NCBI GenBank assembly: GCA_937898755.1
Contig: CALEJU010000010.1
Coordinates: forward strand, 515-64,514
Direction: 5' to 3'
From: an uncultured Acidobacteriota bacterium
GTDB lineage: Bacteria > Acidobacteriota > Terriglobia > Terriglobales > SCQP01
DNA: 64,000 nucleotides
A program made the position numbers and the translations under genes. Below are positions 17,843-49,213 of this stretch, in pieces. The notes below the pieces were generated by a model. The model was not told the origin of the DNA, searched no databases, and saw nothing but the letters and a program-made list of their open reading frames with translations. The first letter of the stretch is position 1. The number at the start of each line of letters is the position of its first letter.

Positions 17843-17957
17843 AGGCGCCCAGGCGAGAAAATCCTGAAGATCTCGTGGCGGCCGTGCGGGCCACTGCCGT
17901 CAGTGGACGGGGGGCGGGTGAGGTGGGAAGCCTTGCGCGGGGGACGCGGCAGCCCTC

Positions 17958-19631: not shown

Positions 19632-19654
19632 GATGATTTCAGTTGTGAGTGCCG

Positions 19655-23606: not shown

Positions 23607-23612
23607 GGGCGG

Positions 23613-24881: not shown

Positions 24882-25221
24882 TGCTCAATCCATTCTACGT
24901 TCCGACCGATCGGTTAGACACATGCATTGGCAATAAAGTTAGCAAAAAGTGAACAATTGTCCGGAGCGTGGACCCAGGATCCGTTACCAATTCGCGCGCC
25001 GCTGCCCCTGAGTGCACACGATCCACAAGGCGAATCGCCTTACATTGGCGCGCTCCCGACCCCCGGCTCCCCCGCAAGGCCGCCAACCCGGTCTCTACCT
25101 CGAAACGTGGCCAACATCACAATTGAGGGGACGTGTTGCCGAGTGATAACCGTGCGGAAAGGCGGACACGTTTATGTCACACTACGCCTTCCGCCAACAC
25201 CACCAAGGGAGACGCACCACG

Positions 25222-33265: not shown

Positions 33266-33343
33266 GAGCGCGCGTCCTCGCGTTTCCAGTGTAATCCTTG
33301 GACGAGAACGGGCCCGCAATGGTTGCGGGAAGCGGGCGGATAC

Positions 33344-33405
33344 GGTTGTTGGATTTTGGTTGTTAGTTGTTGGCATTGCCGTAGACCAACAACTAAAATC
33401 CAACC
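33344..33405. repeat. GTTGTT/AACAAC hairpin repeat between divergent genes
   Basis: GGTTGTTGGATTTTGGTTGTTAGTTGTTGG-N14-CCAACAACTAAAATCCAACC. Confidence 0.7.
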
Positions 33406-33476
33406 ACGTTGTGGTGTGCCGTCCAGCTCGATTGACGGAAGAGCAGGCATCCATCATGGGGCCATTGAGGTGAAGC

Positions 33477-33887
33477 ATGAAGCTGGCGCGTTTGATCTTT
33501 CTCGTCGCAGGTGTACTCGGAGTGATCGAGATCGTGCCGTTGTATCTGGAAGAGGCTGCGATGAACCGGCGGTTCCCGCCGGCGATCACCCATCCGGAGT
33601 ACTACTACGGCTTCATCGGCGTGACGCTGGCATGGCAGCTCGCCTTCCTGCTCATCAGTCGCGATCCGCTGCGCTACCGGCAACTGATGCCGATCGCGGT
33701 AGTGGAGAAGTTAAGCTATGTCGTGGCCATGATCGTTCTGGGGCTGATGAACCGCGTCGCCTCGACCACGGTCGTGGTCGGGATGCTGGACCTGGTGTGG
33801 GCGGTGTTGTTCTCGCTCGCCTACGTGCGCACGCGGGCGGAAACGGCAGTTGGGGGTGGGGCATGGGGTGCGGGGGGGCAGGCATAG
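33477..33887 (+). CDS. Integral membrane hypothetical protein (about 4 TM helices)
   Basis: 136 aa. GAGGTG lies 4 nt upstream. Hydrophobic helices throughout. Confidence 0.6.
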   Translation: MKLARLIFLVAGVLGVIEIVPLYLEEAAMNRRFPPAITHPEYYYGFIGVTLAWQLAFLLISRDPLRYRQLMPIAVVEKLSYVVAMIVLGLMNRVASTTVVVGMLDLVWAVLFSLAYVRTRAETAVGGGAWGAGGQA

Positions 33888-33948
33888 AACGCCGGTTGCC
33901 GTTCAAGGCAGCAACGCTGTCCTACAGGGCGCGAGGCGTGCCTTGGTC

Positions 33949-35166
33949 ATGACGACGTGTTCCAATCGAGCCGGAAGACAAGGGCCCCTGCCGTATGGTG
34001 TCTCCACTGCGCAGCCGCTGCAGTTGGTGCATCTGCATTCGCCTGCCGACGTGCGGCAATTGGCGCCGCTCGTGCATGAGCTATTGACACGGCTGGGACA
34101 GTTCCGCGACATCACCCTCGACCCGGAGTATTTTCTCCTCTCTTTGCCACCCCATTGGTCGGCGGAGGTGTTGGCCTTTTTTGACGGGACGACGTTGCAG
34201 GCGGTGCTCTACGGCCGGCGACGGAAGGTGGGCGGCTGGGGTACAGGCTTCCTGAATGGGGGCGACGCGGTCGGCGGCGGGTGCCTGGCGGGTGATCCGG
34301 CGGTGCTGCCCACCGTGGTGCGGCAAGCAGCGGACTATTACTTCAAAAAGCGCGTCCACGCCCTGCGCTGGAGTTTTGCCTTCTCCGCCGAGACAGTGGG
34401 CACGCCTGAAGCATTCACGCCGAAGGGAGTGTGTTGCAGGGTTGTCAACGTTCCACCGTGCGGTGAATGGCTGCCGCTCGCGCCGAACTATCCCGCATTT
34501 TTGCGCCGCTTGAGCAAGCTGATGCGCCGCAACTTCGTTTATTACCGCCGTCGCGCTGAAGCGGCGGGGTTCCGGTTCGACGCGCAGGTCCCGTTTGAGG
34601 AGTATGCCCACCGGATTCGACACCTCGGCGCCAGTCTGGGCTTTCCCGTGTCGGAGTGGCAACTGCAGAGCGCGGCCCGACTGATGACGCACTTTGGCGG
34701 CGGGTGGTGCGCCGGATTGCGCGGCCCGGACGGCTCCCTGGAGACGGCGCTGTGTGGATTCGGCCGCGACCACGTTTTCAACCTCCTCGGGCAGTTCACG
34801 AACCGGGCCGAGGCGCGGCGCAGCCTCGGTCTGGTATTACGCGGGCACCTGATCGAGTCGTTGATCGCCCGCGGCGACACCGATCTCCGTTATCTGCACG
34901 GCCTGAGTTTTCTCGAGCATCGCTACTGCACGCCGCATCCGCTGCTACGCCTCGATCTAGATCGTCCTCGCCCGCTGGCTACGCCGTTGAAATGGGTTTG
35001 TGCCCGTGTCGTCCAGGCGTTACCGCCGCGAAACCGCAGATGGGCGGACATCCTCGACGCGGTGGCGGGTAGCTATGGGAACACCGCTGCCGGCGACACA
35101 GGTTGCAGCGGGGGCAGTCAGACATGCCTCGCATGCCCCACGCCCCACGCCCCACTTTCCTGTTAA
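33949..35166 (+). CDS. Hypothetical protein, possibly a second CelD-like GNAT acyltransferase
   Basis: Start at ATG 33949. The block NYPAFLRRLSKLMRRNFVYYRRRAEAAGFRF resembles the linker of CelD/BioF2-like acetyltransferases. Confidence 0.45.
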   Translation: MTTCSNRAGRQGPLPYGVSTAQPLQLVHLHSPADVRQLAPLVHELLTRLGQFRDITLDPEYFLLSLPPHWSAEVLAFFDGTTLQAVLYGRRRKVGGWGTGFLNGGDAVGGGCLAGDPAVLPTVVRQAADYYFKKRVHALRWSFAFSAETVGTPEAFTPKGVCCRVVNVPPCGEWLPLAPNYPAFLRRLSKLMRRNFVYYRRRAEAAGFRFDAQVPFEEYAHRIRHLGASLGFPVSEWQLQSAARLMTHFGGGWCAGLRGPDGSLETALCGFGRDHVFNLLGQFTNRAEARRSLGLVLRGHLIESLIARGDTDLRYLHGLSFLEHRYCTPHPLLRLDLDRPRPLATPLKWVCARVVQALPPRNRRWADILDAVAGSYGNTAAGDTGCSGGSQTCLACPTPHAPLSC

Positions 35167-35201: not shown

Positions 35202-35289
35202 GCTGGAGTGGCGGAACTGGCAGACGCAGCAGACTCAAAATCTGCCGGAGCTTTGCTCCTTGGGGGTTCGATTCCCCCCTCCAGCACCA
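35202..35289 (+). tRNA. tRNA-Leu (anticodon CAA), CCA encoded
   Basis: Acceptor GCTGGAG/CTCCAGC, D-arm GCGGAACTGGCAGACGC, anticodon loop CTCAAAA, long variable arm CGGAGCTTTGCTCCTTG, T-arm GGGGGTTCGATTCCCCC, then A-CCA. Confidence 0.95.
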
Positions 35290-35622
35290 GCGCGACATCC
35301 CGCTTGCGGCGCCCTTCCAGCCGCCCTCCCAGGCGTCGCAGTGGCAATCCATGGCACTGGCCGTACGGTCCGGACTTTGGCGTGTCTGGGGGGTGACTCC
35401 CTTCTAACCTTCTTTATTGGTCATTGTAAATGTGCTAGTGTCTGTCAGTTTTTATACGCCTGAGTCCAATTCCGCCCGGCAGAAGTTTCATCTGAGGGAT
35501 GCTTCGCCGGGGTTGCCACGGAGTGTCTGGGCGAGTAGAAGCCTTGGTTCCGTCGGCGTTTCCCCCGCGCGCGGCGGGACGGCACTTTGCGCAGTGCTGC
35601 TTCAGTTTGGAGGCCCTTCGTC

Positions 35623-37485
35623 ATGCATCACATCGTTCGCGTGCTGCCCTGCGCGCTGGCCCTGAGTCTTGCGCTTGCCGGACAGGCCACGCCGGCTGCG
35701 ACGCCGCCCTCTGCCGGCGATACTCCGCAGTCCTCCGGGGCTCCGGTTTCGCCGTTGACCCAGGCGGCGACCTCGTCGTCGGCTGCCGCCGCGCCCGACA
35801 AGAACGGCAAGACCGGCAACGCCGCCCCAGCGCCGCGCGCCTTCACCACCGCCGCCAACGGCGAGTCGCGCACCCAGGACATCATCGAGATCAAGCTGGC
35901 CAACGACAGCGTGCAAATTACCGGTGCGCAACAGAGTTCCTTCCTGCGCAAGGGGCAGGACTCGCTGGCCGAGTTCAACTACTTCACCGATCACCCCTTC
36001 CGTGGCGACACGCGGGTGCAGGTGATCACCATGTTGCGCGGCACCGACGACCCGCACATCGACATCGAGCACAACAGCGTCCAGCGCGCCTCGCTGCGCT
36101 TCTTCAACCCGCGCCTGGACATGACGCTGGGCGATTCGCTGGTCAACTTCTCGCGCCTCTCCTACAACCAGTCGGTGCGCGGCTTGAACTTGGAGCGCCG
36201 CTTCGATCATGGGTTTAAGCTGGCGGCCACCGGGGGCGTCTTCACCGATCGCTGGGGTTCGTTGTTCCGCAACCTCATCACCAAGCCCTACACGCGCGTG
36301 GTGTACGGGGCGCGGGCCGAGCGCACGGTGGGACGGGGGCTGCTGGGCGTCAACTTTTCCGACGCCAGCGATGTGCGGCGTTCGCTGCCCGCCGAACAGG
36401 CCATCACGCCGCCCATCGGCAACCGCGTGGTGAGCACCGACGCGCGCTGGTCGCTGGGCCACCTGAACTTCCTCTCCGAGGCCGCCTACAGTTTCAGCAA
36501 CCCGGACAAGACGCTGTACCACCGCACCTTCGGGGACTACGGCGGCTACCTGGAGTCCAATTTCCACGTGGGAGACCTGCGGCTGCGCGGCTCGCTCACC
36601 CGCTACCAGCCGCTGTTCCTGGCGTTGAACGCCCGCCAGATCTCCGATCTGCAGGACGCCATCTTCGCCAGCACCTACGATCTGGGCAACAACATTACGG
36701 TGAACGGCTCGCTGCGGCGCAGCAACAATGATCTGCGCGGCCAGTTGCCGGCGGAACAGGTGCTCAGTTCGCCCGAGATCCGCCTCGATTTCCACGATTT
36801 CCATTTCCTGCACCGCTCTTCGGTGGAGGTCGGGTACCGCTACCGTGATTTGAGCAGCACGCGCATCCTGCCCACAGCCAGCGCCGCCAACCTGGCGCAC
36901 CGCAAGGTCGGCATTCCCTTTGCCGATCTCACCCTGCCGGTGCATACCACGCTGCTCTCGTTGCATTACGAGCACCGTTCGACCCACGACTTCATCAACT
37001 CCGACCAGACGGCGGGCACCGACAGCATCGGCGGCGGCTTCCGCGGGGTCTACAACTTCGGCAAGTGGACGGTCAACCCGCTGTTCCGCTACGACATCGA
37101 GCGCGACTTCTACAGTTTGTTCACCAACGCCAACAACAACCGCCTGGTCAACGGCTCACTGTTTATCGAGGCGCCCAAGTACTTCGTGTTCGAGGGTTTT
37201 TATCGGCGCCTGTCGGCCAGCACCTTCCAGAACTTCGACAACCCGCTGACGCCCGGCGCGCTGGTGCTGCTGGGCTCGGGGTACCTGCGGCCCAGCTATC
37301 GCGCGGCGCTGAGCTACAAGTTCCGCAACGACGACAACCGCGTCTTTCACGTCTCCTACGAACGCAACAACAACAATTTCATCGATCCCGTCAACCCGTT
37401 CGCCCCCCCCGGACCGGTGACCCTGCGCAACTTCAACGAGCGCGTCTTCGAGGTTGGCCTGCTCTACCGCATCAGCGTGTACTAA
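35623..37485 (+). CDS. Outer-membrane beta-barrel protein (uncharacterised)
   Basis: GGAGG lies 9 nt upstream. Signal peptide MHHIVRVLPCALALSLALAGQA and a low-complexity linker. Alternating beta-strand pattern, ending with aromatic ...LLYRISVY. Confidence 0.75.
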   Translation: MHHIVRVLPCALALSLALAGQATPAATPPSAGDTPQSSGAPVSPLTQAATSSSAAAAPDKNGKTGNAAPAPRAFTTAANGESRTQDIIEIKLANDSVQITGAQQSSFLRKGQDSLAEFNYFTDHPFRGDTRVQVITMLRGTDDPHIDIEHNSVQRASLRFFNPRLDMTLGDSLVNFSRLSYNQSVRGLNLERRFDHGFKLAATGGVFTDRWGSLFRNLITKPYTRVVYGARAERTVGRGLLGVNFSDASDVRRSLPAEQAITPPIGNRVVSTDARWSLGHLNFLSEAAYSFSNPDKTLYHRTFGDYGGYLESNFHVGDLRLRGSLTRYQPLFLALNARQISDLQDAIFASTYDLGNNITVNGSLRRSNNDLRGQLPAEQVLSSPEIRLDFHDFHFLHRSSVEVGYRYRDLSSTRILPTASAANLAHRKVGIPFADLTLPVHTTLLSLHYEHRSTHDFINSDQTAGTDSIGGGFRGVYNFGKWTVNPLFRYDIERDFYSLFTNANNNRLVNGSLFIEAPKYFVFEGFYRRLSASTFQNFDNPLTPGALVLLGSGYLRPSYRAALSYKFRNDDNRVFHVSYERNNNNFIDPVNPFAPPGPVTLRNFNERVFEVGLLYRISVY

Positions 37486-37488
37486 GCA

Positions 37489-40011
37489 ATGGCTGGAGGG
37501 GGACACAACTCGCGACAGCCGCCGCAGGGCGGCGCCACCGGTGGTCGGCAGCGACCGCCGCGCGCCCGGCTCGCGGCCCACTCGCGCTGGGTGTTCCACC
37601 ATGCCGGTTACGGCATCAGCCTGGTGGTCACACTGGCGGCGGTGGCGTTTTACGTGCACGGGTTGCGCGCCGCCAACCATCGAGGATTTTGGGACCGTCT
37701 CGAGTACCGTTCACTCGATGCGCGGTTCCTGTACCGCGCCCAGTTTTTCCCGCAGCGCCCGGCACCGCAGATCGTGCTGGTCACGGTGGACCAGGCGACG
37801 CTGGAAGCGGTGGGGGCGTGGCCGATCTCACGCCTGCACTATGCCCACGTGATTGACCGGCTGGCCGCCGCCGGGGCGCGCGTCATCGCCTTCGACATTG
37901 ATTTCGCCAAGCCGGATCCAGCCTCCGGACTGCAGGCGGTTCACGCCCTGGCCGGGGCACTTCCCGGCGATGCACCCCTGCAGCTGGCCGCGCAGCAGCT
38001 CAGCCGGCAGTTGGACACCGACAAGCAGCTGGCGGCGGCGATTGCGCGTCACGCCGACCGCGTGGTGCTGGGCTACACCTTCCTCGACGAGGCGGACAGC
38101 AAGGCGCAGGACGCGGCAGTGCGCCTGCAGAACGACACCTACCTGCTCGATCCGGTCTACAACCTGCACCCCGCCGGCGGGTTGAAGACGGCGCCGGCCG
38201 CAGCCTTCGCCACCGCGGTGGGCCACCGCCCGGAACTCTTCAAGCCGGGTGCGGAGATGAACTATCCCGTCATCTCGGAGGCCGCCGCGCGGCGGTTGGC
38301 GGGGTACTTCAACTACCTGCCCGACGTGGATGGGTCCTTCCGTCGCGCTCCCCTGGTGATGGGGCACAGTCCGGTCGTACCCGGATTCACCGAGGGCGAC
38401 GCCCTGACCCTCTATCCCTCCGAGGACGTGCAGATCTACAACCTGTACCAGTACCCGGCCGGGACTGATCCCGCCACCGTGGCGCCGCCGGATCTGTACA
38501 TCAACCCGGTCGGCGTTCAGTCCATCCGCTTCCGCAACGACGAGATCACGCCCGACCCGGACGGCACGCTGCTGATCAACTACCCCGGCCCGAAACAGAC
38601 GTATCCACATCTGTCGCTGGCCGCGGTCGAGGCGGGACACTTCCCGCCGCATGTCTTCGAGAACAAGATTGTACTGATCGGCGCCACGGCGCTGGGCATC
38701 GGCGACCTGCGCACCACGCCGGTTTCGACCGCCGCCGATTTCCCGGGGGTGGAGATCCACGCCGCGGTGCTCGGCAACTTGCTGCAACACAATTTCCTGC
38801 GGCACGGCTTCCAGGTCGAAATGGTTGACTTGGGCGTGCTGTTGCTCTTCGGTCTGGGTCTCGGGGCACTCTTCAGCCGCCTGTCACCGCTGCACGCCAC
38901 GCTGGCGTTCCTATGCACTGCCGCGGTGTTCACCGTGGCGGTGGTGGTGGCGTTCATCGCCGCCTCGGTGTGGTTGGCCTTCGTCCTGCCCGCCGCCACG
39001 TTGTTCGTCAATTTCGGCGCCGTGACCAGCTACCGCGTCGTTTTCGAGGACCGCGAAAAGCGGCGTGTGCGGCGCTCCTTTGGGCAGTACGTCGCCCCGG
39101 AAGTGGTGGAGCTGATTGAACGCGACCCGGAGCGCTTTCTGGCGGCGGGCGGCGAGACGCGCGAGCTGACGATTTTCTTCAGCGACATCCGCGGCTTCAC
39201 CGGACTCTCCGAGGGGTTGAGCCCGGAGGAACTGGTGACGGCGCTCAACGAGTACTTCGAGCGCATGACGGCGGCGCTCTTCCACCGCCAGGGCACGCTC
39301 GACAAGTACATCGGCGACGCCATCATGGCTTTTTGGGGCGCTCCCTCCCGGCAACCCGATCATGCGGTGAAGGCCTGCGCCGCCGCGCTCGAGATGCGGG
39401 CCGCGCTGGCCGAGTTGAATCGGGGCTTCCGCGGGCGCGGTCTGTCCGAGCTGGGCGTGGGCATCGGGCTCAACAGCGGCCCGGCGGTGGTCGGCAACAT
39501 GGGCTCCACGGTGCGCTTCAACTACACCGTGATGGGCGATGCGGTCAACCTTGCCTCGCGGCTGGAAGGCATGACCAAGCAGTACGGCGTGGCCATCCTC
39601 GTCAGCGAAGCGACGCGGCGCGCAGTGGGCGATCGCTTCGTGTTCCGCGAGTTGGACGTCATCCGGGTCAAGGGCAAGACGCAGCCGGTGCGGGTTTTCG
39701 AGTTGCTGGACTTCGTGCTGCATGAACGCCGCCAAGGTGCGGCACGACGCAAGGGGCCGGACCGCCGGCAGGGCCGCAGTCCGATTGCCGCCACGGCGCC
39801 GACTTACCCGCGCATGCTGCAACTTTATGAAGTGGCCTACGCGGCTTATGGGCAACGGGACTTCCGCACCGCGCATGCCCGCTTTGTCGAGCTGTTACGG
39901 GAATTTCCGCAGGACGGCCCCAGTCGATTGCTGGCGGACCGCTGCGCGCAGTTCCTCGTGGAGGAGCCCTCGCACGACTGGGACGGGGTGTATGTCATGC
40001 ACACCAAATGA
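37489..40011 (+). CDS. CHASE2-sensor class III adenylate cyclase
   Basis: 840 aa: TM helix, ~350-aa periplasmic domain, three TM helices, then the cyclase domain (FFSDIRGFTGLSE, DKYIGDAIMAFWGAP, GLNSGPAVVGNMGS, YTVMGDAVNLASRLE) and a helical tail. Confidence 0.9.
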   Translation: MAGGGHNSRQPPQGGATGGRQRPPRARLAAHSRWVFHHAGYGISLVVTLAAVAFYVHGLRAANHRGFWDRLEYRSLDARFLYRAQFFPQRPAPQIVLVTVDQATLEAVGAWPISRLHYAHVIDRLAAAGARVIAFDIDFAKPDPASGLQAVHALAGALPGDAPLQLAAQQLSRQLDTDKQLAAAIARHADRVVLGYTFLDEADSKAQDAAVRLQNDTYLLDPVYNLHPAGGLKTAPAAAFATAVGHRPELFKPGAEMNYPVISEAAARRLAGYFNYLPDVDGSFRRAPLVMGHSPVVPGFTEGDALTLYPSEDVQIYNLYQYPAGTDPATVAPPDLYINPVGVQSIRFRNDEITPDPDGTLLINYPGPKQTYPHLSLAAVEAGHFPPHVFENKIVLIGATALGIGDLRTTPVSTAADFPGVEIHAAVLGNLLQHNFLRHGFQVEMVDLGVLLLFGLGLGALFSRLSPLHATLAFLCTAAVFTVAVVVAFIAASVWLAFVLPAATLFVNFGAVTSYRVVFEDREKRRVRRSFGQYVAPEVVELIERDPERFLAAGGETRELTIFFSDIRGFTGLSEGLSPEELVTALNEYFERMTAALFHRQGTLDKYIGDAIMAFWGAPSRQPDHAVKACAAALEMRAALAELNRGFRGRGLSELGVGIGLNSGPAVVGNMGSTVRFNYTVMGDAVNLASRLEGMTKQYGVAILVSEATRRAVGDRFVFRELDVIRVKGKTQPVRVFELLDFVLHERRQGAARRKGPDRRQGRSPIAATAPTYPRMLQLYEVAYAAYGQRDFRTAHARFVELLREFPQDGPSRLLADRCAQFLVEEPSHDWDGVYVMHTK

Positions 40012-40028
40012 GAGGGGTGCGGCGTGCA

Positions 40029-40049
40029 GGCGGCCTAAACCGGGCCGCC
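40029..40049 (+). other. Intercistronic hairpin between the cyclase and the giant gene
   Basis: GGCGGCC-TAAACCG-GGCCGCC: a 7-bp GC stem with no T tract. Confidence 0.4.
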
Positions 40050-40121
40050 ACGGAATGGAGCAAGAGGGTTGAACGGTGGTGCGTCGCGGGTGCGGCTCAC
40101 CGGGCAAGGATCGAAGGATTG

Positions 40122-43100
40122 ATGCAGGAACGGAGCAAACTCATGGGTAACTGGGCGTTAGGATTGGACGGGAAGGCAGGGCTGGTACGCGCGCTGGGCG
40201 CCATGTCCGTTCTCGCGGTGGGCTTGATGGCGGCCGCGCCCGCGCCCACCGTGGCGGGCAAGGTCGGCGCCGTGCTGCCCAATGCCACCATCGCTCCGCA
40301 GCAGCCGACCGCGGCGATGCTCGCCAAGCTGCCCGCCGCCAAGAAGGGCGACTCCGTCTCCTACCAGCAGTACGTTGCCACGTCCAACAGCGGCCGCCTG
40401 CGTCTCGACATGGAGGACGGTTCGGTCCTCAACATCGGCAGTTCCGCTCTGGTCCGGGTTCTCCCCAGCAACACCGGTCGGCACGCCAGCGCGCTGCAAC
40501 TGGTTTACGGCAAGATCCGCGAGTACGGCAACGGCACGCACAACGGGCAGCAGATCACGACCCCCACGGCCGTGGCCGGGGTGATCGGCACCGACGTCTT
40601 TCTCGACGCCTCACCCTTTAACTCCTCGATCACCGTGCTCTCCGGTACGGTAACCGTGTCGAGCAGCAATCCCGGAATCGGTGGCGGTGTCACGCTCACC
40701 GCCGGCGAGCATGCGGATGTGGGCGCCAACAGGGCCCCCCTGAAACGGCCGGCCACGCCACAGGAAGTGCAGCAGGCGTTGCAGTCCACCGACCCGCTGG
40801 CCTTGGAATTTAACGTTCCGGACAGCCTGAAGCCGGGTGCACCGCCGCAGTCAGGTTACGTCCAAGGCAAGGGGGTGGAGCAGATAGATCCCGCCGCCAG
40901 CTCGATCGAAGGCGCCGGCATGCTGCTCAAACTACAGCCTCTGCAGGGACAGCGGTTGACGTTCACCTTGCAGGCGCTCACCCAAGCGGTGCATGGCGCT
41001 CACGCCGTGCATTTCCGGACCAGGAGCGGCGAGAACATTGACACTTCGGTGCTGGTCAGCAGCTTGAACCCGCCGACGGCCCAGCCCGGCCCGGCGCTGA
41101 GCGTCACCCAGGGGGCGCCCGCCACCTTCAATGGCGCCAAATCCTCCAGCCCGAACGGGGCCATTGCCTCCTACGACTGGTTGTTGCGCGGCGTCGGTCA
41201 GCTCAGCCGCGGGGACACCTTTGTCGTCAATACCGGCGGCATAGAACCCGGAACCTACGATGTGCAATTGACCGTGGTGGATGCCGCGGGGATGACAGCC
41301 ACGGCAGTCACCAAGCTCACCATCACGCGCGCCACCCAGGCGCCGGTCGCCAAGTTCCAGATTCCCAGCAAGGTGATGCAGGGCTCGTTGCTCATGCTCG
41401 ATGCATCCGCTTCGCAAGCACGCGACGGCGCCTCGCTGCGTTCCTATTCGTGGAGCAGTCCTGATTTTGCGTTGAGCGCCAGCGGCGCGACCGTGCAGGT
41501 GAATACGTCGAACCTGTACGTCGGAACCACGTACAACATCCGCTTGGAAGTGACCGACTCCAACGGCGTGGTCAGCTCCCTGACACTGCCCGTCGTCCTG
41601 AGTCCGGCGGCCCTACCCGTCGCGGCGCCGGGACAGGCACAGCGCGTGACGGCGGGCACGACCGCCACCTTTGATGGCAGCCAGTCCACGGCTTCCAGCG
41701 GACGGATCACCACTTACAGTTGGAGGCTGGACCCGCCGCCGGGGCAGCAGTTCAACGGCAGCCCCACTGTCCTCGTCGGGGACCGTCCCAGCTTCAGTAT
41801 CGACACCACCGCACTGTCGCCCGGCGATTACACCCTCACGTTGGTCGTCACCGATGCCGCCGGACAGACCGGCACGGCCGCCACCAAGCTCACGGTCATG
41901 CCCGGAGCCAGCAGCAGCGGCACCCCGCAGGACGTCGTCCAGACGCTCGGGAACGCCTATCAGGCCCTGAATTCCAGTCAGTTCTTGTCGCACTTCTCCA
42001 GCGGTCAATCCGGCTACGACCCTTTCCCAAGCTACGAGGCGCTGGCCGAAAACTTCAAGTCCTCCTTCAGTCAGCTGCAGTCCGCCACGGTCAACATCCA
42101 GATCGCCAACGTGCAAACCCAGGGCAACTACGCGACGGTGTTCGCCAACTGGACCATCAACTACACCTTTAAAGCCAACGGCGCGACGGGTTCACTGAAA
42201 GAAAATCTGACTATCCGCCTGGAGAATGTCGCAGGCGGCGGCTGGTTGATCACCGACTTCCAGGGCTCGACCGGCAAGGTGGGCACCAACAGCGGCGGCC
42301 AACTGCAACTGGGCAAGACGCCAGCGTCCGCCGTGGCCAACTTCACACTGTCCGGCTTTACCGCCGCGGCCGCGGTCGCTTCCGGAGCAACGGCGACGGT
42401 GAGTGTGACGGCCAGCAACAATGGCAGCGGCGACGCGGCGGCCTCGAAAATCGCGCTCACCCTGCAGGGCGTCGACGCGCCGGTGGGCACCATTCCAGTT
42501 CCCCCGCTGGCGCATGGCGCGTCGGCCGCCCTGACGGGGACGTTCCAGGCACCGGCCACGGTCTCCGGTGCAAACCTGACGCTGGTGGCCACCATCAACG
42601 CCGATCGCTCTGTGTCCGAGTCGAACTTTGACGACGACACGGCGAAGACCACCATTACGGTCGGTCTTCCCGATCTGAGCGTCAGCGCCGTCACTGCGCC
42701 GAATAACGTTCTGCTGCCCGGCGTCCCGGGCACGCTCACCGCCACGGTCGCCAACGGCGGCCTGATCGCGAGCGCTCCCACCACGTTGGTGGCAACACTG
42801 GGAGCGGCAGCGGTGCAAATCGGGACAGGGGCGGTGCCCAACGTCAATCCCGGGCAGAGCGTTCAGGTTACGATTCCGGTCAATACGCCGGCCAACCTCA
42901 GCGGCCCGCAACCGATTGCCGTTACCGTCAACCCAACCCACGCCTTGGCCGAGTCTTCTTACGCCAACAACACCTTTACGGGAACGATCATTGCCGGGCA
43001 GCCCGATCTGGTGGTGGGCACGAGTTCGGTCATTCCAAACCCGCTCGTCGCAGGCACGCCGGGCACACTCGCCGTGGTGGTCACCAACCAAGGTACGGCG

Positions 43101-46100
43101 CCCTCGGCGGCGACCACGCTCATCGCGACCGGGGATGTTTCCGGTACCCAGAATGTTCCGGTCATCAACGCCGGGCAGAGCGCCACGGTGAACATCTCCT
43201 TCACGACGCCGGAGGAGGGCACCTACAACGTCAACCTGGCGATAACTGCGGATCCCAACGAGAGCAACAAGACCAACAATACCGGCAAGGCCAGCTTCCA
43301 AGTCGGTGCGCCGGACTACATCGTGCAGAGCGCGGGTTTGCTGCAGAACGGCAGCCCGGTCACGCAGGTGCACCCCGGCGATTCCTTCAATACGACGATC
43401 ACCCTCGCCGATATCGGCCAGAGCGATCCGGCAGCCGCCGGCACGGTGGCCGTGCATGTCGCGGTCAGTGGACCGCAGGGGCAGGTGTACTCCAACGACT
43501 TCAATTCGGCGCTGCCCACCCTCACGCATCCTGTCACGAACGTGAGCGCCGCGGTTGCGCTGGGGCCGAACGCCGTACCCGGCTCCTACACCGCGACCGT
43601 GACGGTGAACCCGGGCGGCGCGGTGCACGAAAGCAGTACCGCCAACAACACCCTCCAGTTCAGTTTCACGATCCTGAAGCAGGCGGACTACGTGGTGCAG
43701 AGCGCCAACCTGACCGTGGGCGGCAGCGTTGCCTCGCTTCTGCATCTGGGCGACACGCCGACGCTCAACTTCACGGTTGCCAATCAAGGTCAGACCGACC
43801 CCCCGGCGGGCGCCAAGCTCACGGTGGCTTACGCGGTGGCAGGACCCGGCAAAAATCTGCCCAGCGGCACCGTCAGCATCGCGGCTCCGACGCTTGCTCA
43901 GGCGACCCCCGCGAGCGTCACCTTCAACCCGTTGGGTCAGGACGCAACTCCCGGCACCTACACCATCACGGTGACCGCCAATAGCGATGGCGCGTTACCT
44001 GACGGCAACCCCGGCAACAACACCTTCCAGTTCCAAATCACGGTGGCCGGCGTGCCGGACTATGTCGTGCAGACGGCCAATGTTGCGGTCAACGGCAGCG
44101 CGGTCTCGCTCCTGCATGTGGGCGACTCCCCGGTGCTGAACTTCACCCTGGCCGATATCGGAATGTCCGATCCCCCGGCCGGTTCCGCGGTGACCGTCAC
44201 CTTCAGCGTCGCCGGACCGGGCAAGAACTCACCTACGGGCACGCAAAAGGTCCCCGCTCCTACCCGGACTCAGACAAGCACCGGCAGCTTCCCGCTGGGA
44301 ACGCTCGACAGTCAGGCCACGCCCGGCACCTACACCATCACCGTTACAGTGAACGGCGATGGGGCGCTGCCGGACGCCAATCCGGGCAACAACACCTTCC
44401 AGGTCCAAGTCACCATCGCCGGTGCCGCCGACTACATCGTGCAGAGCGCCAACGCCTCGCTCAACGGCTCGGTTACCAACGTGTTGCACGCCAACGACGC
44501 ACCGACCCTCAACTTCACGCTTTCCAACATCGGCCAAGTGGATCCGCCGGCGGGCACCATGATCGCCGTGGCTTACGCCGTTACTGGGCCGGGCCAAAAC
44601 CTGCCCTCGGGGACGACGCAGGTTGCAGCTCCGACGCAGGCACAGCCGACGGGCGGCAGCTTTGCCGTTCCATCGATCGGTCCCAATCCCACGCCAGGCA
44701 CTTACACGGTGACGGTGACGGTCAATCCGGATCACGCCGTTCCGGAAGGGAATTTCAACAACGACAGTCGGCAGTTCCAGATCACTGTGGCCGGGGTGGC
44801 AGATTATACGGTGCCGGCAGCGGGCTTGCTGGTCAACGGCACCCTGGTCTCCCCAGCCACCGTGGCTTCCGGTACAACGGTTCAAATCGGTTTCGTCGTA
44901 ACAAATCTCGGATCAGGCGATCCGCCCCGCGGCGCCCAGATTTTAGTGAGTTACACCGACAGTCTGAACAACAAGCAGACTCAGACAGTCTTCGCACCCA
45001 TCCATTCTCAAAACTCATCCGGGAGTTTCACACTGCAGATTCCGGCCACGGCTGCCGCCGGAACGGTGGTGACCGGCACCATTACGGTGAACAGCGATGG
45101 AGCCCTGCCTGAGTCCAACCCCGCCAATGATTCGGCCCCGTTTACGCTGAACATTGCCACTGCGGCGCCATTCAGCGTCATCGGTCCGGGCGGGACGGCA
45201 CCCGCACTGGTTGCCGCGACCACGTTCTCGAACACCGAAAACCAAACGAGCGTGGTCGTCGGCTATACGGCGTCCGCCACCACCTTGGAAAATGCCACGC
45301 TGAGCATCCAGAACAACAGCCCGCTCGCCATCAGCTTCGATAGCAGCGGAAACGTCATCTCAACGACGAATCCCACGCAGCGCATCCTCGTCGACAGCAG
45401 CAATGGCGCTCCTGCGGGGAACTACAGCTTTACGGTTTCCGGCAAAACCGCCTCGGGACTGAATCTTGTGCCGGTGCAGGTCAACGTCATGGTGGTGGAT
45501 GTGACGCTGGCGCCGGTCACCACACCCGTGCAGGTGCTGCGCAATGACAGCAATGGCGTCAGTTTCCCGCTGACGTTTAATGGGTATTTCCCGTGCGCCG
45601 TGGCGTTCCCAGGTAACCTTGGGGGCGGGCTCACCGGAGTGTTTGTCTTTGAGCCCGGGATTGGGGCTGCAGGCCGCCAGCGTCCCACCGCGCGCCCGGA
45701 ACTGACTTCCAGTGCAGGCGTTTGTACGGGATTCCAGCCCAACGCTGCCGTGAAGCTGCAGGCGCAGGCCTTCGATGTGAATCCGGTCCTCCAGACCGCG
45801 ACGCTTCAAGTGTCGGTGGCTGGGCTCCGCTCGACAAAATCCTTCACCCTGCCGGTCAACGTCTATGACTTCCTATTGACGGCCACCCCCGCCAGTCAGG
45901 CCAATCATCGCCTGAGCCTGACCATCGGAACGCCCACGACAATTACGCTCGCGCTGGTTCCCATCAACACCAGCCAGACGCTGACCGCCAACCTGACGCT
46001 GACCCCGACCGTCTTGTCTGCAGATCCCTCGGTCGTAAAGCTCTCCAGTGTGCCGGCCACCATCAGCAGCGGTACGCCGGTGACCTATCAAGTCACCACC

Positions 46101-48677
46101 ACCGCCGTGGTTGGATTGCAGGTGCGGGCCCAGGCCGTTCTAGGGGCGACCACCCCATCACCCTTCCGCTTCAACGACACCTACTTCAGCACCACCGGGG
46201 CCAACTCCGATCTGGCGCTGACGTCGGTCACGTTTCAACGGGATCTCAACGCCGCACCCGCGGTCATCGGCGAACAGACGACTGCCACCCTCAACATCAC
46301 CAACAACGGAACTGCAGCCACCCCCACACGCCTGATCAACGGCAATTCAATCATCGGCTCGGTGCAGATCGCTCTGGGTGGGCGTCCGCTGATCGCCTAC
46401 TACCTGATCAACACCTTGCAGCCGCAGCAGACGGCTGCGGTGGCACTGCCGTTCTTCATCCCCGACTTCGGCTTGGCCGGTTCCCAAGCGTTGAGTTTTA
46501 CCTTCACTCCCATCGATGGCGCGGTCGACCTGACCACCTCGGACAAGATCCTGTCGCAGAACATCTCCATCGTCGACTGGGGGGTGGCGATCAACGGCGG
46601 TGGCCCCGGCTCCTCGGCCGGCAACCCGCTCCCGGTGGCGCAGGGCGCAACGGTCAACGTTCCGCTCCTGTTCACCAACAGCGCGAATACGAAGCTGGAT
46701 CCAACGGTGAATCCCGTCGTGGTGAGTGGCAGTCAGCCCACCACTGGACTTTCCGTCACCGTGCCTGCCGGAACTCTGAACAGCACGTCGGTCAACGTTC
46801 CTGTCGCGGTCACCGCGGGGGTGAATGACGGACTTTATGTGCTCAACCTCGATGTCGCGATGAACAAAGGGCGGGTGGCGAGCAGCACGTCTCTTGGCGG
46901 AGGGGCGGAGTTGGCCCGCTCCAGCTTGGACACTTCGGGCGGCTTCTTTGGCGACACCGTTCGCAAGGCGGTGGTCTATCTGCAGGTCGGCGCCACACCG
47001 GGTCTCAAGGTGAGCCTGACCAGCAGTCCGAGCGGGACCGCAGCCAACCCCATTCAGGTTGATGGCCCGCAGCAGATCCCCCTGGGCATCACGCCGACGC
47101 GGCAGGACGGCAAGACCACCGGAACCGTAGATCTTGATGTGCAGGGGAGTTCGCAGTTCGGGACGCTGCAAAGCGGTCAAGTCGTCGCCGATCAGAATAT
47201 CTCCGCCATCCCTTACGGTACGGTGACCACGGTTCAGGTCGGCGCGGCGGTGGACTACAGCGGCAATAGTGCCGTGCCGGTCGGACCTGCCAGCCTGACC
47301 GTAGTGGCGCACTCGCCGCAGGGGCAGGCCGGGCGCGGACGCCGCGAAAGCGGAGCGGCCGCTTCGGGTGGGACGCCCTCCAACACCCTGCAGGTCTTCT
47401 TCAACGTGGGCGACTTGAACGTCGCTTTTTCGCCGTCCGCCTCGGGCGGGTACAACTTCCCGGTGGGGGGCACGCAGACCATCTCGGTGACCACCTCGGC
47501 GGTCAGCGGCTTTAAGACGGTGCCGTTGATCCTGTCTTGGGAGCTGCCGGCCGGCGTGACGATTGACCAGAACGACGTCACGCTGAGCTCCGTCAACGCC
47601 ACCACAACGTTCAAGATGAGCTATATCGGGCCGGCCGGCGGCGGCCACTCGCTGCTCTTCCTGAACGTCTTCGTGCCCTTCAACGCCAGCATCGCCAACC
47701 AGAGCTTCTACAAGTTCTACGTGGTTCCGGTGACGCTGGGCAGCAGCGCCGCCGGCCTGGGCGGCGGTGGGCTCTCCACCGCCGCCGCGGGCGGCGACGG
47801 CCTGCGCGGCCGCTGGGCGCGCGGCGTTCCGCGCTCTTTGGGAAGCGGCAGGGGAATTGCCGCGCCGACACGCACGCAACCCTTGCGCCTGACCGTGCAG
47901 GGGCACGACATCACATTGCATCCCGCCAACCCGCGTCCGGGCGACCCGGTGCGGGTGCGGGTGCCGGTCATGAACGATGGCGACACCATAGCGCGTGACG
48001 TTCCCGTCGAACTCACCCTCAGCGGCCAGCCGCTGGCCTCGACCACGGTGACCGTGCGGGCCCACGGCATGAGCGTGGCCGAACTCGAGTGGACGATCCC
48101 CATCGCACAGCAGGCGGCCTTCGGTGAACGGCTGCGCGTGCAGGTGGATCGCGACAACCGGCTCACCCCGGCCAGTCCCGCGAAAAGTGCGGCCGTGGAT
48201 TTGCAACTCGGCGAAGACGGCGGACCCGCCGTGCGCGGCCGCGGGCCGCAACAGCGGCAGCGCGGCACCCTGGCCTTCCCGGCGGAAACCTGCGCTGGCT
48301 ACCGGTTCGCTTTTGCCGGCGAAACGGCCTGCGGGTCGGCGGATGCAGAGTTCATGGCCGCCGGTGGCCACGTCAGCGTCGAAGGGCGCGACGGTATCGC
48401 CGATCTCGGGTTCGCCGACTTGGGTAACCCGCCCGCCGTGCCGTCCACCGGCTTTGTGAGCACACCGCAAATGTTGCAGGTGGGTCACGTGTACGCGGTG
48501 CGGGTGCGCAGCGCGACAGTGCTCGTCCGCGTCGTTTCCGTGCACAACCCCGACGCCGAACGCGAGGTTCGCGAAAAGGTCTTCGGGCGTGGCCATAACC
48601 CGCTCGACCACGCCCCCGTTCCGCATACACTGCAAGGCGGAGCGCCGGTGACGGTGACGCTGGAATGGCTGCAATAG
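40122..48677 (+). CDS. Giant secreted/surface protein: signal-anchor, FecR domain, 3 PKD-like, NTF2-like module, ~9 CARDB-like repeats, further Ig-like region, terminal CARDB and unknown C-terminal domain
   Basis: Single open frame to 48677. Start candidates are ATG 40008 (ATGA overlap with the cyclase stop), ATG 40122 and ATG 40143 (GGAG 7 nt upstream). The FecR pattern is RLRLDMEDGSVLNIGSSALVRVL...VIGTDVFLDAS...LSGTVTVSS. The CARDB pattern is PDLxV...N.G...A...ESNxxNN. Confidence 0.85.
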   Translation: MQERSKLMGNWALGLDGKAGLVRALGAMSVLAVGLMAAAPAPTVAGKVGAVLPNATIAPQQPTAAMLAKLPAAKKGDSVSYQQYVATSNSGRLRLDMEDGSVLNIGSSALVRVLPSNTGRHASALQLVYGKIREYGNGTHNGQQITTPTAVAGVIGTDVFLDASPFNSSITVLSGTVTVSSSNPGIGGGVTLTAGEHADVGANRAPLKRPATPQEVQQALQSTDPLALEFNVPDSLKPGAPPQSGYVQGKGVEQIDPAASSIEGAGMLLKLQPLQGQRLTFTLQALTQAVHGAHAVHFRTRSGENIDTSVLVSSLNPPTAQPGPALSVTQGAPATFNGAKSSSPNGAIASYDWLLRGVGQLSRGDTFVVNTGGIEPGTYDVQLTVVDAAGMTATAVTKLTITRATQAPVAKFQIPSKVMQGSLLMLDASASQARDGASLRSYSWSSPDFALSASGATVQVNTSNLYVGTTYNIRLEVTDSNGVVSSLTLPVVLSPAALPVAAPGQAQRVTAGTTATFDGSQSTASSGRITTYSWRLDPPPGQQFNGSPTVLVGDRPSFSIDTTALSPGDYTLTLVVTDAAGQTGTAATKLTVMPGASSSGTPQDVVQTLGNAYQALNSSQFLSHFSSGQSGYDPFPSYEALAENFKSSFSQLQSATVNIQIANVQTQGNYATVFANWTINYTFKANGATGSLKENLTIRLENVAGGGWLITDFQGSTGKVGTNSGGQLQLGKTPASAVANFTLSGFTAAAAVASGATATVSVTASNNGSGDAAASKIALTLQGVDAPVGTIPVPPLAHGASAALTGTFQAPATVSGANLTLVATINADRSVSESNFDDDTAKTTITVGLPDLSVSAVTAPNNVLLPGVPGTLTATVANGGLIASAPTTLVATLGAAAVQIGTGAVPNVNPGQSVQVTIPVNTPANLSGPQPIAVTVNPTHALAESSYANNTFTGTIIAGQPDLVVGTSSVIPNPLVAGTPGTLAVVVTNQGTAPSAATTLIATGDVSGTQNVPVINAGQSATVNISFTTPEEGTYNVNLAITADPNESNKTNNTGKASFQVGAPDYIVQSAGLLQNGSPVTQVHPGDSFNTTITLADIGQSDPAAAGTVAVHVAVSGPQGQVYSNDFNSALPTLTHPVTNVSAAVALGPNAVPGSYTATVTVNPGGAVHESSTANNTLQFSFTILKQADYVVQSANLTVGGSVASLLHLGDTPTLNFTVANQGQTDPPAGAKLTVAYAVAGPGKNLPSGTVSIAAPTLAQATPASVTFNPLGQDATPGTYTITVTANSDGALPDGNPGNNTFQFQITVAGVPDYVVQTANVAVNGSAVSLLHVGDSPVLNFTLADIGMSDPPAGSAVTVTFSVAGPGKNSPTGTQKVPAPTRTQTSTGSFPLGTLDSQATPGTYTITVTVNGDGALPDANPGNNTFQVQVTIAGAADYIVQSANASLNGSVTNVLHANDAPTLNFTLSNIGQVDPPAGTMIAVAYAVTGPGQNLPSGTTQVAAPTQAQPTGGSFAVPSIGPNPTPGTYTVTVTVNPDHAVPEGNFNNDSRQFQITVAGVADYTVPAAGLLVNGTLVSPATVASGTTVQIGFVVTNLGSGDPPRGAQILVSYTDSLNNKQTQTVFAPIHSQNSSGSFTLQIPATAAAGTVVTGTITVNSDGALPESNPANDSAPFTLNIATAAPFSVIGPGGTAPALVAATTFSNTENQTSVVVGYTASATTLENATLSIQNNSPLAISFDSSGNVISTTNPTQRILVDSSNGAPAGNYSFTVSGKTASGLNLVPVQVNVMVVDVTLAPVTTPVQVLRNDSNGVSFPLTFNGYFPCAVAFPGNLGGGLTGVFVFEPGIGAAGRQRPTARPELTSSAGVCTGFQPNAAVKLQAQAFDVNPVLQTATLQVSVAGLRSTKSFTLPVNVYDFLLTATPASQANHRLSLTIGTPTTITLALVPINTSQTLTANLTLTPTVLSADPSVVKLSSVPATISSGTPVTYQVTTTAVVGLQVRAQAVLGATTPSPFRFNDTYFSTTGANSDLALTSVTFQRDLNAAPAVIGEQTTATLNITNNGTAATPTRLINGNSIIGSVQIALGGRPLIAYYLINTLQPQQTAAVALPFFIPDFGLAGSQALSFTFTPIDGAVDLTTSDKILSQNISIVDWGVAINGGGPGSSAGNPLPVAQGATVNVPLLFTNSANTKLDPTVNPVVVSGSQPTTGLSVTVPAGTLNSTSVNVPVAVTAGVNDGLYVLNLDVAMNKGRVASSTSLGGGAELARSSLDTSGGFFGDTVRKAVVYLQVGATPGLKVSLTSSPSGTAANPIQVDGPQQIPLGITPTRQDGKTTGTVDLDVQGSSQFGTLQSGQVVADQNISAIPYGTVTTVQVGAAVDYSGNSAVPVGPASLTVVAHSPQGQAGRGRRESGAAASGGTPSNTLQVFFNVGDLNVAFSPSASGGYNFPVGGTQTISVTTSAVSGFKTVPLILSWELPAGVTIDQNDVTLSSVNATTTFKMSYIGPAGGGHSLLFLNVFVPFNASIANQSFYKFYVVPVTLGSSAAGLGGGGLSTAAAGGDGLRGRWARGVPRSLGSGRGIAAPTRTQPLRLTVQGHDITLHPANPRPGDPVRVRVPVMNDGDTIARDVPVELTLSGQPLASTTVTVRAHGMSVAELEWTIPIAQQAAFGERLRVQVDRDNRLTPASPAKSAAVDLQLGEDGGPAVRGRGPQQRQRGTLAFPAETCAGYRFAFAGETACGSADAEFMAAGGHVSVEGRDGIADLGFADLGNPPAVPSTGFVSTPQMLQVGHVYAVRVRSATVLVRVVSVHNPDAEREVREKVFGRGHNPLDHAPVPHTLQGGAPVTVTLEWLQ
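43314..45173 (+). repeat. Five in-frame tandem repeats of exactly 372 bp (124 aa) inside the giant gene
   Basis: The (P/A)DY(I/V/T)V codon block recurs at 43314, 43686, 44058, 44430 and 44802. Conserved segments include TPGTYT(I/V)TVT and NPGNNTFQ. Confidence 0.85.
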
Positions 48678-48745
48678 AGGACAGGACGGGTGAGGAGCGG
48701 TGAGGACGGTGGCGGTCCGGTACACTGAATTCGTGTGGAGGTGAT

Positions 48746-49213
48746 ATGCGCCTATCGCGTGCGTTTTCTGCTGTCCTGCTGGTGACCTTGGCGCTGGCCG
48801 TCGCCGCCCCGGCGCAGCACCGCAAGAATCCGGATGTTGACGCGCCCGGTGGGGTGGGTCCCGCGCAGGCCGCCGACAGCGTCTTCTCGTTGCTCAAGGA
48901 CGGGCTCGAAGGACACATCAAACGCCTTTTCATGTCCGCCTTTGACCAGGACATGCCGGCCTACGATGAGTTTGACGATCAGATCGAGAAGCTATTCCGC
49001 GAGGTGCAGGTCTTCCGTGTCCAGTTCCGCGTACTGCAGAGCGAGATGCAGGATCGCTCGGGCGTCTTGTTGGTGCAGGTGGACCTCGATGAGAGCGGCT
49101 CGACCGCCCCACGCCGCGCCACGGAAGAGGTCAAGCTGAATCTGGTACTGACCAAGAAGGGCTGGCGCATCTCCGACCTCGAACCGCGCACCTTGTTCCT
49201 GCCGCCGCGCTAG
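48746..49213 (+). CDS. Small secreted protein, NTF2-like by eye; resembles an internal module of the giant protein
   Basis: GGAGGTG lies 2 nt upstream. Signal peptide MRLSRAFSAVLLVTLALAVAAPAQ. 155 aa. Confidence 0.65.
   Translation: MRLSRAFSAVLLVTLALAVAAPAQHRKNPDVDAPGGVGPAQAADSVFSLLKDGLEGHIKRLFMSAFDQDMPAYDEFDDQIEKLFREVQVFRVQFRVLQSEMQDRSGVLLVQVDLDESGSTAPRRATEEVKLNLVLTKKGWRISDLEPRTLFLPPR

Follow-up and report, generated by a model that had tools for sequence, protein, structure and literature searches.

The CHASE2 sensor domain is widespread in bacteria, where it is combined with cyclase, histidine kinase, Ser/Thr kinase or diguanylate cyclase outputs, and to our knowledge it has no known ligand. 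We analyzed a CHASE2 adenylate cyclase and three neighboring genes in a 64,000-nucleotide (nt) stretch of contig CALEJU010000010.1 from an uncultured bacterium of the Terriglobales (Acidobacteriota), hereafter the window. In addition to the cyclase, this module encodes a predicted outer-membrane β-barrel protein, a giant secreted protein headed by a FecR-type domain, and a small secreted protein. In S. meliloti, the CHASE2 cyclases CyaD1, CyaD2 and CyaK need the outer-membrane barrel protein NsrA for their response to a protein signal through cyclic AMP (cAMP) (PMC7529298, PMC13001267), and a FecR protein encoded next to cyaD1, SMc02177, is dispensable for plant-signal perception (PMC5498481). 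LysM/FecR proteins adjoin CHASE2 histidine kinases in the Burkholderia 'BiofilmReg' operon and in PA4035-type loci (PMC5192318), and a cluster in Campylobacterota includes a CHASE2 cyclase, a phosphodiesterase, a FecR protein of the outer membrane, and a TPR protein (PMC9239204). Given the NsrA, Burkholderia and Campylobacterota precedents, the little-studied pairing of FecR with CHASE2 is not new. In the Terriglobales locus, the four genes probably convert the condition of a structure on the cell surface into a cAMP signal. Its components are listed below, with lengths in amino acids (aa).

35623-37485, plus strand: outer-membrane β-barrel protein, 620 aa from the ATG, as predicted by AlphaFold2 and Foldseek
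37489-40011, plus strand: CHASE2 receptor adenylate cyclase, 840 aa, from Pfam and its catalytic residues
40143-48677, plus strand: giant secreted protein, 2,844 aa from the ATG at 40143 (alternative start at 40122; frame open from 40008)
40245-40787, plus strand: FecR-type head of the giant (aa ~35-215), immediately behind the signal peptide, from Pfam, AlphaFold2 and Foldseek
48746-49213, plus strand: small secreted protein, 155 aa, with a signal peptide and GGAGG ahead of its ATG

Homologs of the barrel gene were located on long contigs, and 12 barrel loci were examined. A FecR-headed protein is encoded beside the barrel in all 12, which supports the tie of barrel to giant proposed in a preliminary description of this DNA, and the cyclase is present too in eight. 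The order barrel, CHASE2 cyclase, FecR/CARDB protein was found in L001, L005, L006, L007, L009 and L090, where the flanking genes differ. L091 differs in having a divergent cyclase gene next to the barrel gene, which is itself followed directly by genes for a FecR/PKD protein, a small-protein homolog and a protein of 4,336 aa. The FecR gene directly follows the barrel gene in L003, L004, L008 and L092, which represent one lineage, and in L093, whose barrel carries an AMIN domain; in these five, no cyclase was found between the barrel and FecR genes or in the 5-10 kb upstream, and the cyclase looks like an add-on to a barrel-giant core. Translational coupling of the barrel and cyclase genes is the usual case: they overlap by 4 nt in L001, L005 and L007 and are separated by 2 nt in L006 and by 3 nt in the window. 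Five further Terriglobales loci (L010, L012-L015) encode a small FecR protein (265-314 aa) followed by a CHASE2 cyclase, without a barrel. Because barrel and giant exist without a nearby cyclase, small FecR and cyclase without a barrel, and all three together, FecR appears to be the shared connector. The module is real and conserved within Terriglobales, in different genomic surroundings.

Other genes were seen around these loci. In L003, L004, L008 and L092, an 800-aa Ser/Thr kinase-TPR gene lies a few kb away on the opposite strand (~3400-5900, minus strand), beside a PBP-like gene and a gene of unknown type. A GAF-SpoIIE (PP2C-type) phosphatase gene (2005-3762, minus strand) is located directly downstream of the divergent cyclase of L091. 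Genes for a Crp-type regulator (L001, 5236-5985) and a protein binding cyclic nucleotide monophosphates (cNMP; L005, 20397-20900) lie 5-6 kb or less from the respective modules.

We also scanned one genome per species, which gave 80 loci with relatives of the cyclase, and identified FecR open reading frames (ORFs) using a purpose-built profile. Such ORFs are strongly enriched at the cyclase, in support of the earlier expectation for FecR-domain genes near CHASE2 genes: 30 of the 80 species loci have one no more than 2 kb away. FecR density was 0.11 per kb near the cyclase compared with 0.0047 per kb farther away, a 24-fold excess; among 31 nearby FecR ORFs, 21 are on the cyclase strand and 20 lie within 200 nt. 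Pfam confirmed 39 of the 42 scanned FecR proteins (matches to our own profile plus an ORF from L089, described below). For 38 adjacent pairs, FecR and CHASE2 distances correlate with r = 0.85, and those of CHASE2 and its own catalytic domain with r = 0.81; when the catalytic domain is controlled for, FecR and CHASE2 retain a partial correlation of 0.59 (permutation p <= 5e-4). FecR divergence follows that of CHASE2 more closely than that of the catalytic domain, a signal that is suggestive rather than conclusive. Since FecR recurs beside CHASE2 across phyla, and since its divergence tracks CHASE2 over the catalytic domain, the data support an input to CHASE2 that would be the FecR-fold domain of a partner protein rather than a small molecule.

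The same data bear on the possibility that these genes are only co-regulated. CHASE2 would then sense something unrelated, and cAMP would control expression of the adhesin and barrel, or the genes would merely be co-expressed, with the FecR domain serving barrel docking or export and not signaling. We consider this unlikely, even granting that barrel-giant pairs occur without a nearby cyclase, that Crp-type or cNMP-binding genes lie near L001 and L005, and that the CHASE2 ligand is unknown, given the stronger covariation of FecR with CHASE2 than with the catalytic domain. Moreover, FecR-CHASE2 adjacency spans many phyla and architectures, including small, LysM, TPR-barrel, RTX and CARDB proteins (PMC5192318, PMC9239204), and it extends to sensors with histidine-kinase outputs, which argues for a connection to the sensor side rather than to the cAMP output.

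The FecR partners vary widely. Proteins of 350-580 aa are found in proteobacteria and Sulfurimonas, and giants are encoded beside CHASE2 cyclases in Bradyrhizobium (2,018 and 1,517 aa, cadherin/Big_9), Methylobacterium (1,225 aa, cadherin and RTX) and Desulfovibrionaceae (1,088 aa, 16 RTX repeats). The alphaproteobacterial FecR-headed giants lie directly upstream of the cyclase (L055, 3925-9981; L069, 5377-9930; L073, 6030-9707), and that of Desulfovibrionaceae lies ~1.5 kb upstream on the opposite strand (L040, 5108-8374). A fusion of FecR to giant repeats, previously thought to be undescribed, therefore recurs beside CHASE2 cyclases in other phyla; for the specific combination of FecR with CARDB, our literature search found nothing relevant. 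The four giants of L055, L069, L073 and L040 carry FecR near the N-terminus, with no evident signal peptide, and resemble type I-secreted adhesins in which FecR occupies the place where the N-terminal retention module would sit. A gene of the type I secretion system (T1SS) ABC/C39 type is located near the cyclase of L049.

Where no FecR gene was found near the CHASE2 cyclase, many of the loci instead have genes for T2SSE ATPases under cNMP or GAF regulation, for class II phosphodiesterases and for GAF-HD proteins. A betaproteobacterial cluster (L025, 5674-16337; similar in L026 and L056) encodes a CHASE2 Ser/Thr kinase, PP2C and FHA proteins, a CHASE2 adenylate cyclase and a class II phosphodiesterase for cAMP, along with a rhodanese protein that binds cNMP and an MshE-like GAF-T2SSE ATPase. 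Such a second context for CHASE2 cyclases, without FecR, points to pilus or secretion ATPases as targets of cAMP.

Structural comparisons indicate how the FecR head and the barrel might be arranged. In the Fec and Pup paradigm, a FecR-fold domain binds the periplasmic signaling domain of an outer-membrane barrel. The FecR domain of the giant matches Pfam FecR (PF04773) with E = 1.4e-9 and 38.7 bits against a cut-off of 24. In an AlphaFold2 model of the N-terminal 330 aa, the predicted local distance difference test (pLDDT) score reaches 80-95 for aa 35-215, and Foldseek matches this confidently modeled domain to the C-terminal cell-surface signaling domain of PupR (6ovk_R; E = 5.7e-7, root-mean-square deviation 2.8 Å over 138 columns) and to the Bacteroidetes anti-sigma factor BDI_1681. 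The entry 6ovk is the complex of this PupR domain with the periplasmic signaling domain of its barrel.

The barrel protein begins with a signal peptide (ALA|GQ) and a disordered Ala/Pro/Ser-rich tail (aa 18-81), followed by the barrel (aa 85-619) and a C-terminal Tyr. Its AlphaFold2 model, built on 39 homologs, has a pLDDT of 77.5 and a predicted TM-score of 0.67; the predicted fold has ~26 strands and lacks a plug domain, in support of a barrel assignment that had been made from the sequence alone. The top Foldseek match is MtrB (6r2q_B; TM-scores 0.54/0.52), followed by ushers, SlpA, TonB-dependent transporters and LptD, and the likeness to MtrB is one of fold only. By analogy with MtrB, LptD, ushers and TonB-dependent transporters, a plug-less barrel of this size should need an occupant; part of the giant might fill it, or else the small NTF2-like protein.

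Together, these observations suggest, with moderate confidence, that the barrel and the FecR-headed giant assemble, that the periplasmic FecR head is the input to CHASE2, and that the genes thus specify one envelope module that relays to cAMP. The plug-less ~26-strand barrel would reside in the outer membrane. The giant would be exported by Sec, with the periplasmic FecR-fold domain as its mature N-terminus, and this head would dock on the barrel, as FecR and PupR domains do on their outer-membrane barrels. The barrel would hold or thread the PKD/CARDB chain, which would extend outward, and the same FecR domain would feed CHASE2, the periplasmic part of a class IIIb adenylate cyclase in the inner membrane. 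In this way the state of the barrel and giant, whether ligand binding, load, assembly or loss, would set cAMP synthesis, and the small NTF2-like protein would be an accessory that could plug the barrel or act as a chaperone. This proposal draws on the match of the FecR fold to a PupR domain that binds the periplasmic domain of a barrel; on the plug-less barrel model and its resemblance to MtrB, a 26-strand sheath around a partner protein; and on recurrent synteny, FecR-CHASE2 enrichment and covariation, with NsrA and the FecR-headed giants as precedents. The analysis establishes the domain identities, the catalytic competence of the cyclase, the synteny, the enrichment, the covariation and the modeled barrel fold. 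We infer all of the physical contacts, the position of the giant at the surface, and what the signal is and which way it runs. Of the earlier proposal, comparative evidence backs the wiring through FecR and the tie of barrel to giant, and does not extend to contact sensing or to export of the giant. Going further, the giant may be a fiber threaded through or plugged into the barrel, whose retained FecR head acts as a tethered ligand of CHASE2, so that binding or load is converted into cAMP; we put this forward as a possible but tentative extension.

A different arrangement of the parts is suggested by L089, from an S. meliloti megaplasmid. This locus contains, directly upstream of a CHASE2 cyclase, a 1,209-aa ORF that appears to comprise FecR, TPR and a C-terminal region ending in a typical β-signal. 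Its length and the place of its barrel agree with those published for NsrA. Although the record is unannotated, length, host and position suggest that the ORF is NsrA, whose acidic loops have reportedly been proposed to bind basic proteins. By comparison, the barrel in the window could be a surface receptor for an external ligand, and the giant a periplasmic or sub-outer-membrane relay or scaffold with repeats that are not exposed. Such an arrangement would be in keeping with the combination of FecR, TPR and β-signal in a single L089 ORF, and with a barrel gene that is coupled translationally to the cyclase gene and not to that of the giant. Furthermore, the barrel-containing NsrA is required for CHASE2-cyclase signaling (PMC7529298). 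However, at 2,800-3,500 aa and ~25 Ig-like domains, such a chain far exceeds the width of the periplasm (judged from general dimensions, not computed), PKD and CARDB domains are typically extracellular, and a length that ranges from ~1,100 to >3,500 aa with both ends conserved is the pattern of a surface fiber. The plug-less barrel would also be left in need of an occupant, and it shows no detectable sequence similarity to the NsrA-like C-terminus. We regard this NsrA-like arrangement as unlikely.

The assembly of barrel and FecR-headed giant could alternatively serve as a checkpoint, in which the FecR head tells CHASE2 whether the barrel has engaged or exported the giant and cAMP feeds back on the production of envelope components. 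An N-terminal FecR domain would reach the periplasm first, and the evidence from synteny and covariation is the same as that for the relay proposed above. The contacts are likewise the same, and the present data do not separate a checkpoint from external sensing; we consider the checkpoint quite improbable.

Several observations weigh against a surface-to-cAMP relay through FecR. Five of the 12 barrel loci, in two lineages, have barrel and giant without a nearby cyclase, so signaling is not intrinsic to that pair. Fifty of the 80 CHASE2 cyclase loci lack a FecR gene within 2 kb, a count in which some contigs are short and the profile may miss divergent FecR. Co-inheritance, combined with the wider dynamic range that fast-evolving domains have, can give rise to the mirror-tree signal. 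No signal for surface sorting or secretion is recognizable in the giant, nor does the barrel carry POTRA or any other known translocator domain. Finally, phmmer searches with four cNMP/Crp queries found no cAMP receptor gene in the window.

The cyclase consists of a first transmembrane helix (aa ~40-60), CHASE2 (aa 56-456), three transmembrane helices (aa ~445-520), the catalytic domain (aa 557-733) and a conserved C-terminal tail that ends DWDGVYVMHTK. Its hydrophobic helices (aa ~40-60 and ~445-520) were read directly off the sequence, not from a dedicated topology predictor, and the position of CHASE2 between them suggests that it is periplasmic. Pfam identifies CHASE2 (PF05226; E = 2.5e-53 over aa 56-456) and Guanylate_cyc (PF00211; E = 2.7e-26, 92.7 bits against a cut-off of 21.9). 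Its Lys/Thr pair fits the adenylate-specific class IIIb enzymes and points to ATP as substrate. The motifs FFSDIRGF, KYIGDAIMAF and VNLASRLE, noted previously, are all present, and the metal-binding D566 and D610, the substrate-specifying K606 and T680, and the transition-state N687 and R691 are invariant in 22 homologs. With all six catalytic residues kept, the protein reads as a competent class III adenylate cyclase, as was proposed, and CHASE2 is the only recognizable sensor domain in it, in agreement with its description as the sole sensory input.

Beyond its FecR head, the giant is divided as follows.

41070-41897, plus strand: three PKD domains (aa ~310-585), from Pfam PKD_4 and K319L-like_PKD
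41895-42302, plus strand: SnoaL/NTF2-like insert (aa ~585-720), from a weak SnoaL_3 match (E = 0.006)
42324-45152, plus strand: eight consecutive CARDB-like domains (aa 728-1670), from Pfam CARDB and a self-profile
45153-47888, plus strand: region of aa ~1671-2582, with one CARDB-like domain (aa 2038-2126) found by self-profile
47889-48674, plus strand: last CARDB domain (aa 2583-2673; Pfam) and a conserved C-terminal domain

Behind the signal peptide there are thus three PKD and about ten CARDB-like domains, the make-up of a CARDB/PKD repeat surface protein. Self-profile matches place the PKD domains at aa 311-387, 401-479 and 492-578; the Pfam CARDB match has E = 3.5e-52, and the CARDB array includes five units of 124 aa (aa 1058-1670). 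All five domain calls of the preliminary description (FecR, CHASE2, Guanylate_cyc, PKD and CARDB) were confirmed by the Pfam search. Three pieces covering aa ~1699-2564 had no Pfam match. The C-terminal domain, ~150 aa with two Cys, belongs to no curated family and is kept in the 1,130-aa protein of L005, in ORF2 of L001 and in the 1,213-aa protein of L091. Giants are colinear over the N-terminal ~1,050 aa (FecR, Ig-like, PKD, NTF2-like insert and first CARDB domains) and the C-terminal ~500 aa; the middle is variable, and homologs range from ~1,100 (1,130 aa in L005) to >3,500 aa. A homolog search with the N-terminus returned only 12 short matches, and the downstream ends of most giants fell outside this comparison. 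Tandem repeats are absent at the DNA level, which rules out a collapsed-repeat assembly artifact.

The small 155-aa protein, which has no Pfam or NCBIfam family, is probably NTF2/SnoaL-like. It had been described as a small secreted paralog of the giant; secretion is upheld, and the paralogy is weak and limited to the SnoaL/NTF2-like insert at aa ~585-720 (BLASTP E = 0.04 against the 155-aa protein, and E = 5e-4 between the insert and the L091 homolog). This insert is kept in the giants of L001, L005, L006 and L090 (E = 1e-16 to 1e-20). Homologs of the small gene lie directly after the FecR protein gene in L091 (E = 4e-12) and downstream of it in L005 (E = 6e-24), with a transposase gene between; the latter (17840-18289) is of the IS200-type Y1 kind and separates the FecR/CARDB gene from the small-protein homolog.

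The barrel belongs to no Pfam or NCBIfam family, has no sequence relative in the PDB, and has no Plug, TonB_dep_Rec or STN match in Pfam. It shares 100% identity with a protein listed as hypothetical in a Terriglobales metagenome-assembled genome (MAG), and its close family comprises 63 clusters at 90% identity, whose sources, where named, are Terriglobales/Acidobacteriia MAGs. Among 1.84 billion representatives, a profile search found 328 relatives (representatives at 50% identity), some of which have an N-terminal AMIN domain or weak similarity to SlpA_C or Porin_4. No paper on this family was found. Membership among TonB-dependent transducers, ushers, LptD, TpsB or MtrB was rejected, as there are zero sequence-family matches and only a generic large-barrel fold. 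Homology to the barrel of NsrA was likewise not supported by hhalign against the C-terminal 610 aa of the L089 ORF (probability 0.3%), a comparison of low power with one target sequence.

Three further features frame or divide the module.

35202-35289, plus strand: tRNA-Leu(CAA), identified by ARAGORN; the upstream boundary, outside the module
35290-35622, plus strand: upstream intergenic region of 333 nt with an AT-rich stretch, from the sequence; the presumed promoter region of the module
40029-40049, plus strand: GC hairpin with an 8-bp stem (40029-40036 pairs with 40042-40049), in the spacer between cyclase and giant

Every sequence detail of the arrangement reported earlier was found again: four same-strand reading frames after tRNA-Leu (35623-37485, 37489-40011, a frame at 40008-48677, and 48746-49213, all on the plus strand), 3 nt between the barrel TAA (37483-37485) and the cyclase ATG (37489), the sequence AAATGA at 40006-40011 that contains both the cyclase TGA and an in-frame ATG (40008), ATGs at 40122 and 40143 preceded by Shine-Dalgarno-like GAAGGA and GGAG, the 8-bp stem of the hairpin, and a 68-nt gap between the giant stop and the small gene. 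That ATG did not hold as the start of the giant, nor did an overlap of the cyclase and giant genes. Alignments of homologs begin at a cleavable signal peptide, which corresponds to the sequence that follows 40143, so the giant most likely starts at 40143 or 40122, the overlapping ATG at 40008 is rejected in their favor, and the junction is a gap of 110-131 nt. The hairpin was rejected as a terminator: it has no T run, it was not called by the terminator scan, and the junction as a whole folds no better than shuffled sequence (z = -1.58). GGAGG precedes the barrel ATG at 35623 by 10-14 nt, and a consensus scan of 35290-35622 found no sigma-70 match. Promoter-like and terminator-like matches inside the module did not rise above chance, which is compatible with a single transcript but no proof of one, and is neutral for co-transcription.

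The flanks consist of unrelated housekeeping genes (DinB, transketolase, IspH, FAA hydrolase and M1 peptidase). A genomic island at the tRNA is not indicated, as the tRNA 3' end is repeated nowhere in the window and the GC content is flat. Elsewhere in the window, on the minus strand at 17958-24881, there is an unusually long TolC-like outer-membrane efflux protein (821 aa), whose OEP domains are confined to the C-terminal part; after it come three membrane-fusion paralogs of the HlyD family in tandem (453, 429 and 422 aa). An 824-aa DUF5117/DUF4953 Met-zincin protein (28013-30487, plus strand) adjoins an M1 aminopeptidase with HEAT repeats (25174-27828). The ~2.8 kb upstream of the tRNA (32414-35166) hold long ORFs on both strands, none of which matches Pfam; the minus-strand ORF at 32414-33589 could encode a secreted protein from an internal Met.

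The module adds an uncharacterized family of very large barrels whose sole constant partner is a FecR-headed protein. The natural separation of its parts, into barrel with giant, FecR with cyclase, and all three, makes the wiring testable. If the giant is surface exposed, the module would be a candidate for carrying adhesion at the surface into a cAMP signal in these abundant soil bacteria. Should the giant be a threaded or plugged-in fiber, this would represent a previously unrecognized mounting of a giant Ig-like fiber on the Gram-negative surface; the long-unknown input of CHASE2 would be the FecR domain of a partner, and NsrA, the LysM-FecR/CHASE2 kinases and the FecR-headed RTX adhesins would be versions of one surface-to-second-messenger device.

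Comparison with known systems places the module near several of them. Like MtrB of MtrCAB, LptD-LptE and the usher pores, it includes a very large barrel without a plug of its own, implying a protein occupant, and MtrB also has ~26 strands; in contrast to these, the barrel has no MtrB_PioB, LptD or Usher match in Pfam, and the module has no cytochrome gene. LapA-type RTX adhesins, which a periplasmic N-terminal module holds at the surface, inverse autotransporters and two-partner secretion systems offer an analogy, and no more than that, for the giant, which has a conserved head, a variable Ig-like shaft, a conserved C-terminus and a dedicated outer-membrane partner gene. An RTX or T1SS signal is missing here, as are POTRA and TPS domains, an intimin-type barrel and a LysM domain. 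Two-partner secretion itself was rejected, because ShlB, POTRA and Haemagg_act matches are lacking and the barrel, with ~26 predicted strands and no folded periplasmic domain, differs from TpsB (POTRA and a 16-strand Omp85-type barrel).

The FecA-FecR-FecI and PupB-PupR systems share with the module a FecR-fold periplasmic domain, genetic pairing with an outer-membrane barrel and trans-envelope logic, but here the barrel lacks a plug, TonB box and STN domain, the output would be cAMP, and the giant has neither an anti-sigma domain nor a membrane anchor (its homologs have cleavable signal peptides) nor an adjacent extracytoplasmic function (ECF) sigma gene. A role as a FecR-type anti-sigma regulator was rejected, as FecR directly follows the signal peptide and no sigma factor or STN transducer is found among the neighbors. 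These neighbors (tRNA, barrel, cyclase, small protein and DinB) also agree with the earlier statement that the module has no sigma factor or TonB-dependent transducer. The Burkholderia and Campylobacterota clusters likewise place a gene for a periplasmic or outer-membrane FecR protein beside a CHASE2 sensor, although their FecR proteins are small, no dedicated 26-strand barrel has been described for them, and their outputs and accessory genes are different.

With the NsrA system, the module shares an outer-membrane barrel, a FecR domain, an adjacent cAMP-producing CHASE2 class III cyclase and the lack of a sigma factor. Gene content and adjacency match this functional type, in which barrel and FecR would be required to activate the cyclase. 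Unlike in NsrA, barrel and FecR are on separate proteins, neither of which has TPR, the giant adds ~2,600 aa of PKD/CARDB repeats, and an NTF2-like small protein is added. It is this split, uncharacterized ~26-strand barrel, together with the giant PKD/CARDB extension and the NTF2-like accessory, that sets the module apart.

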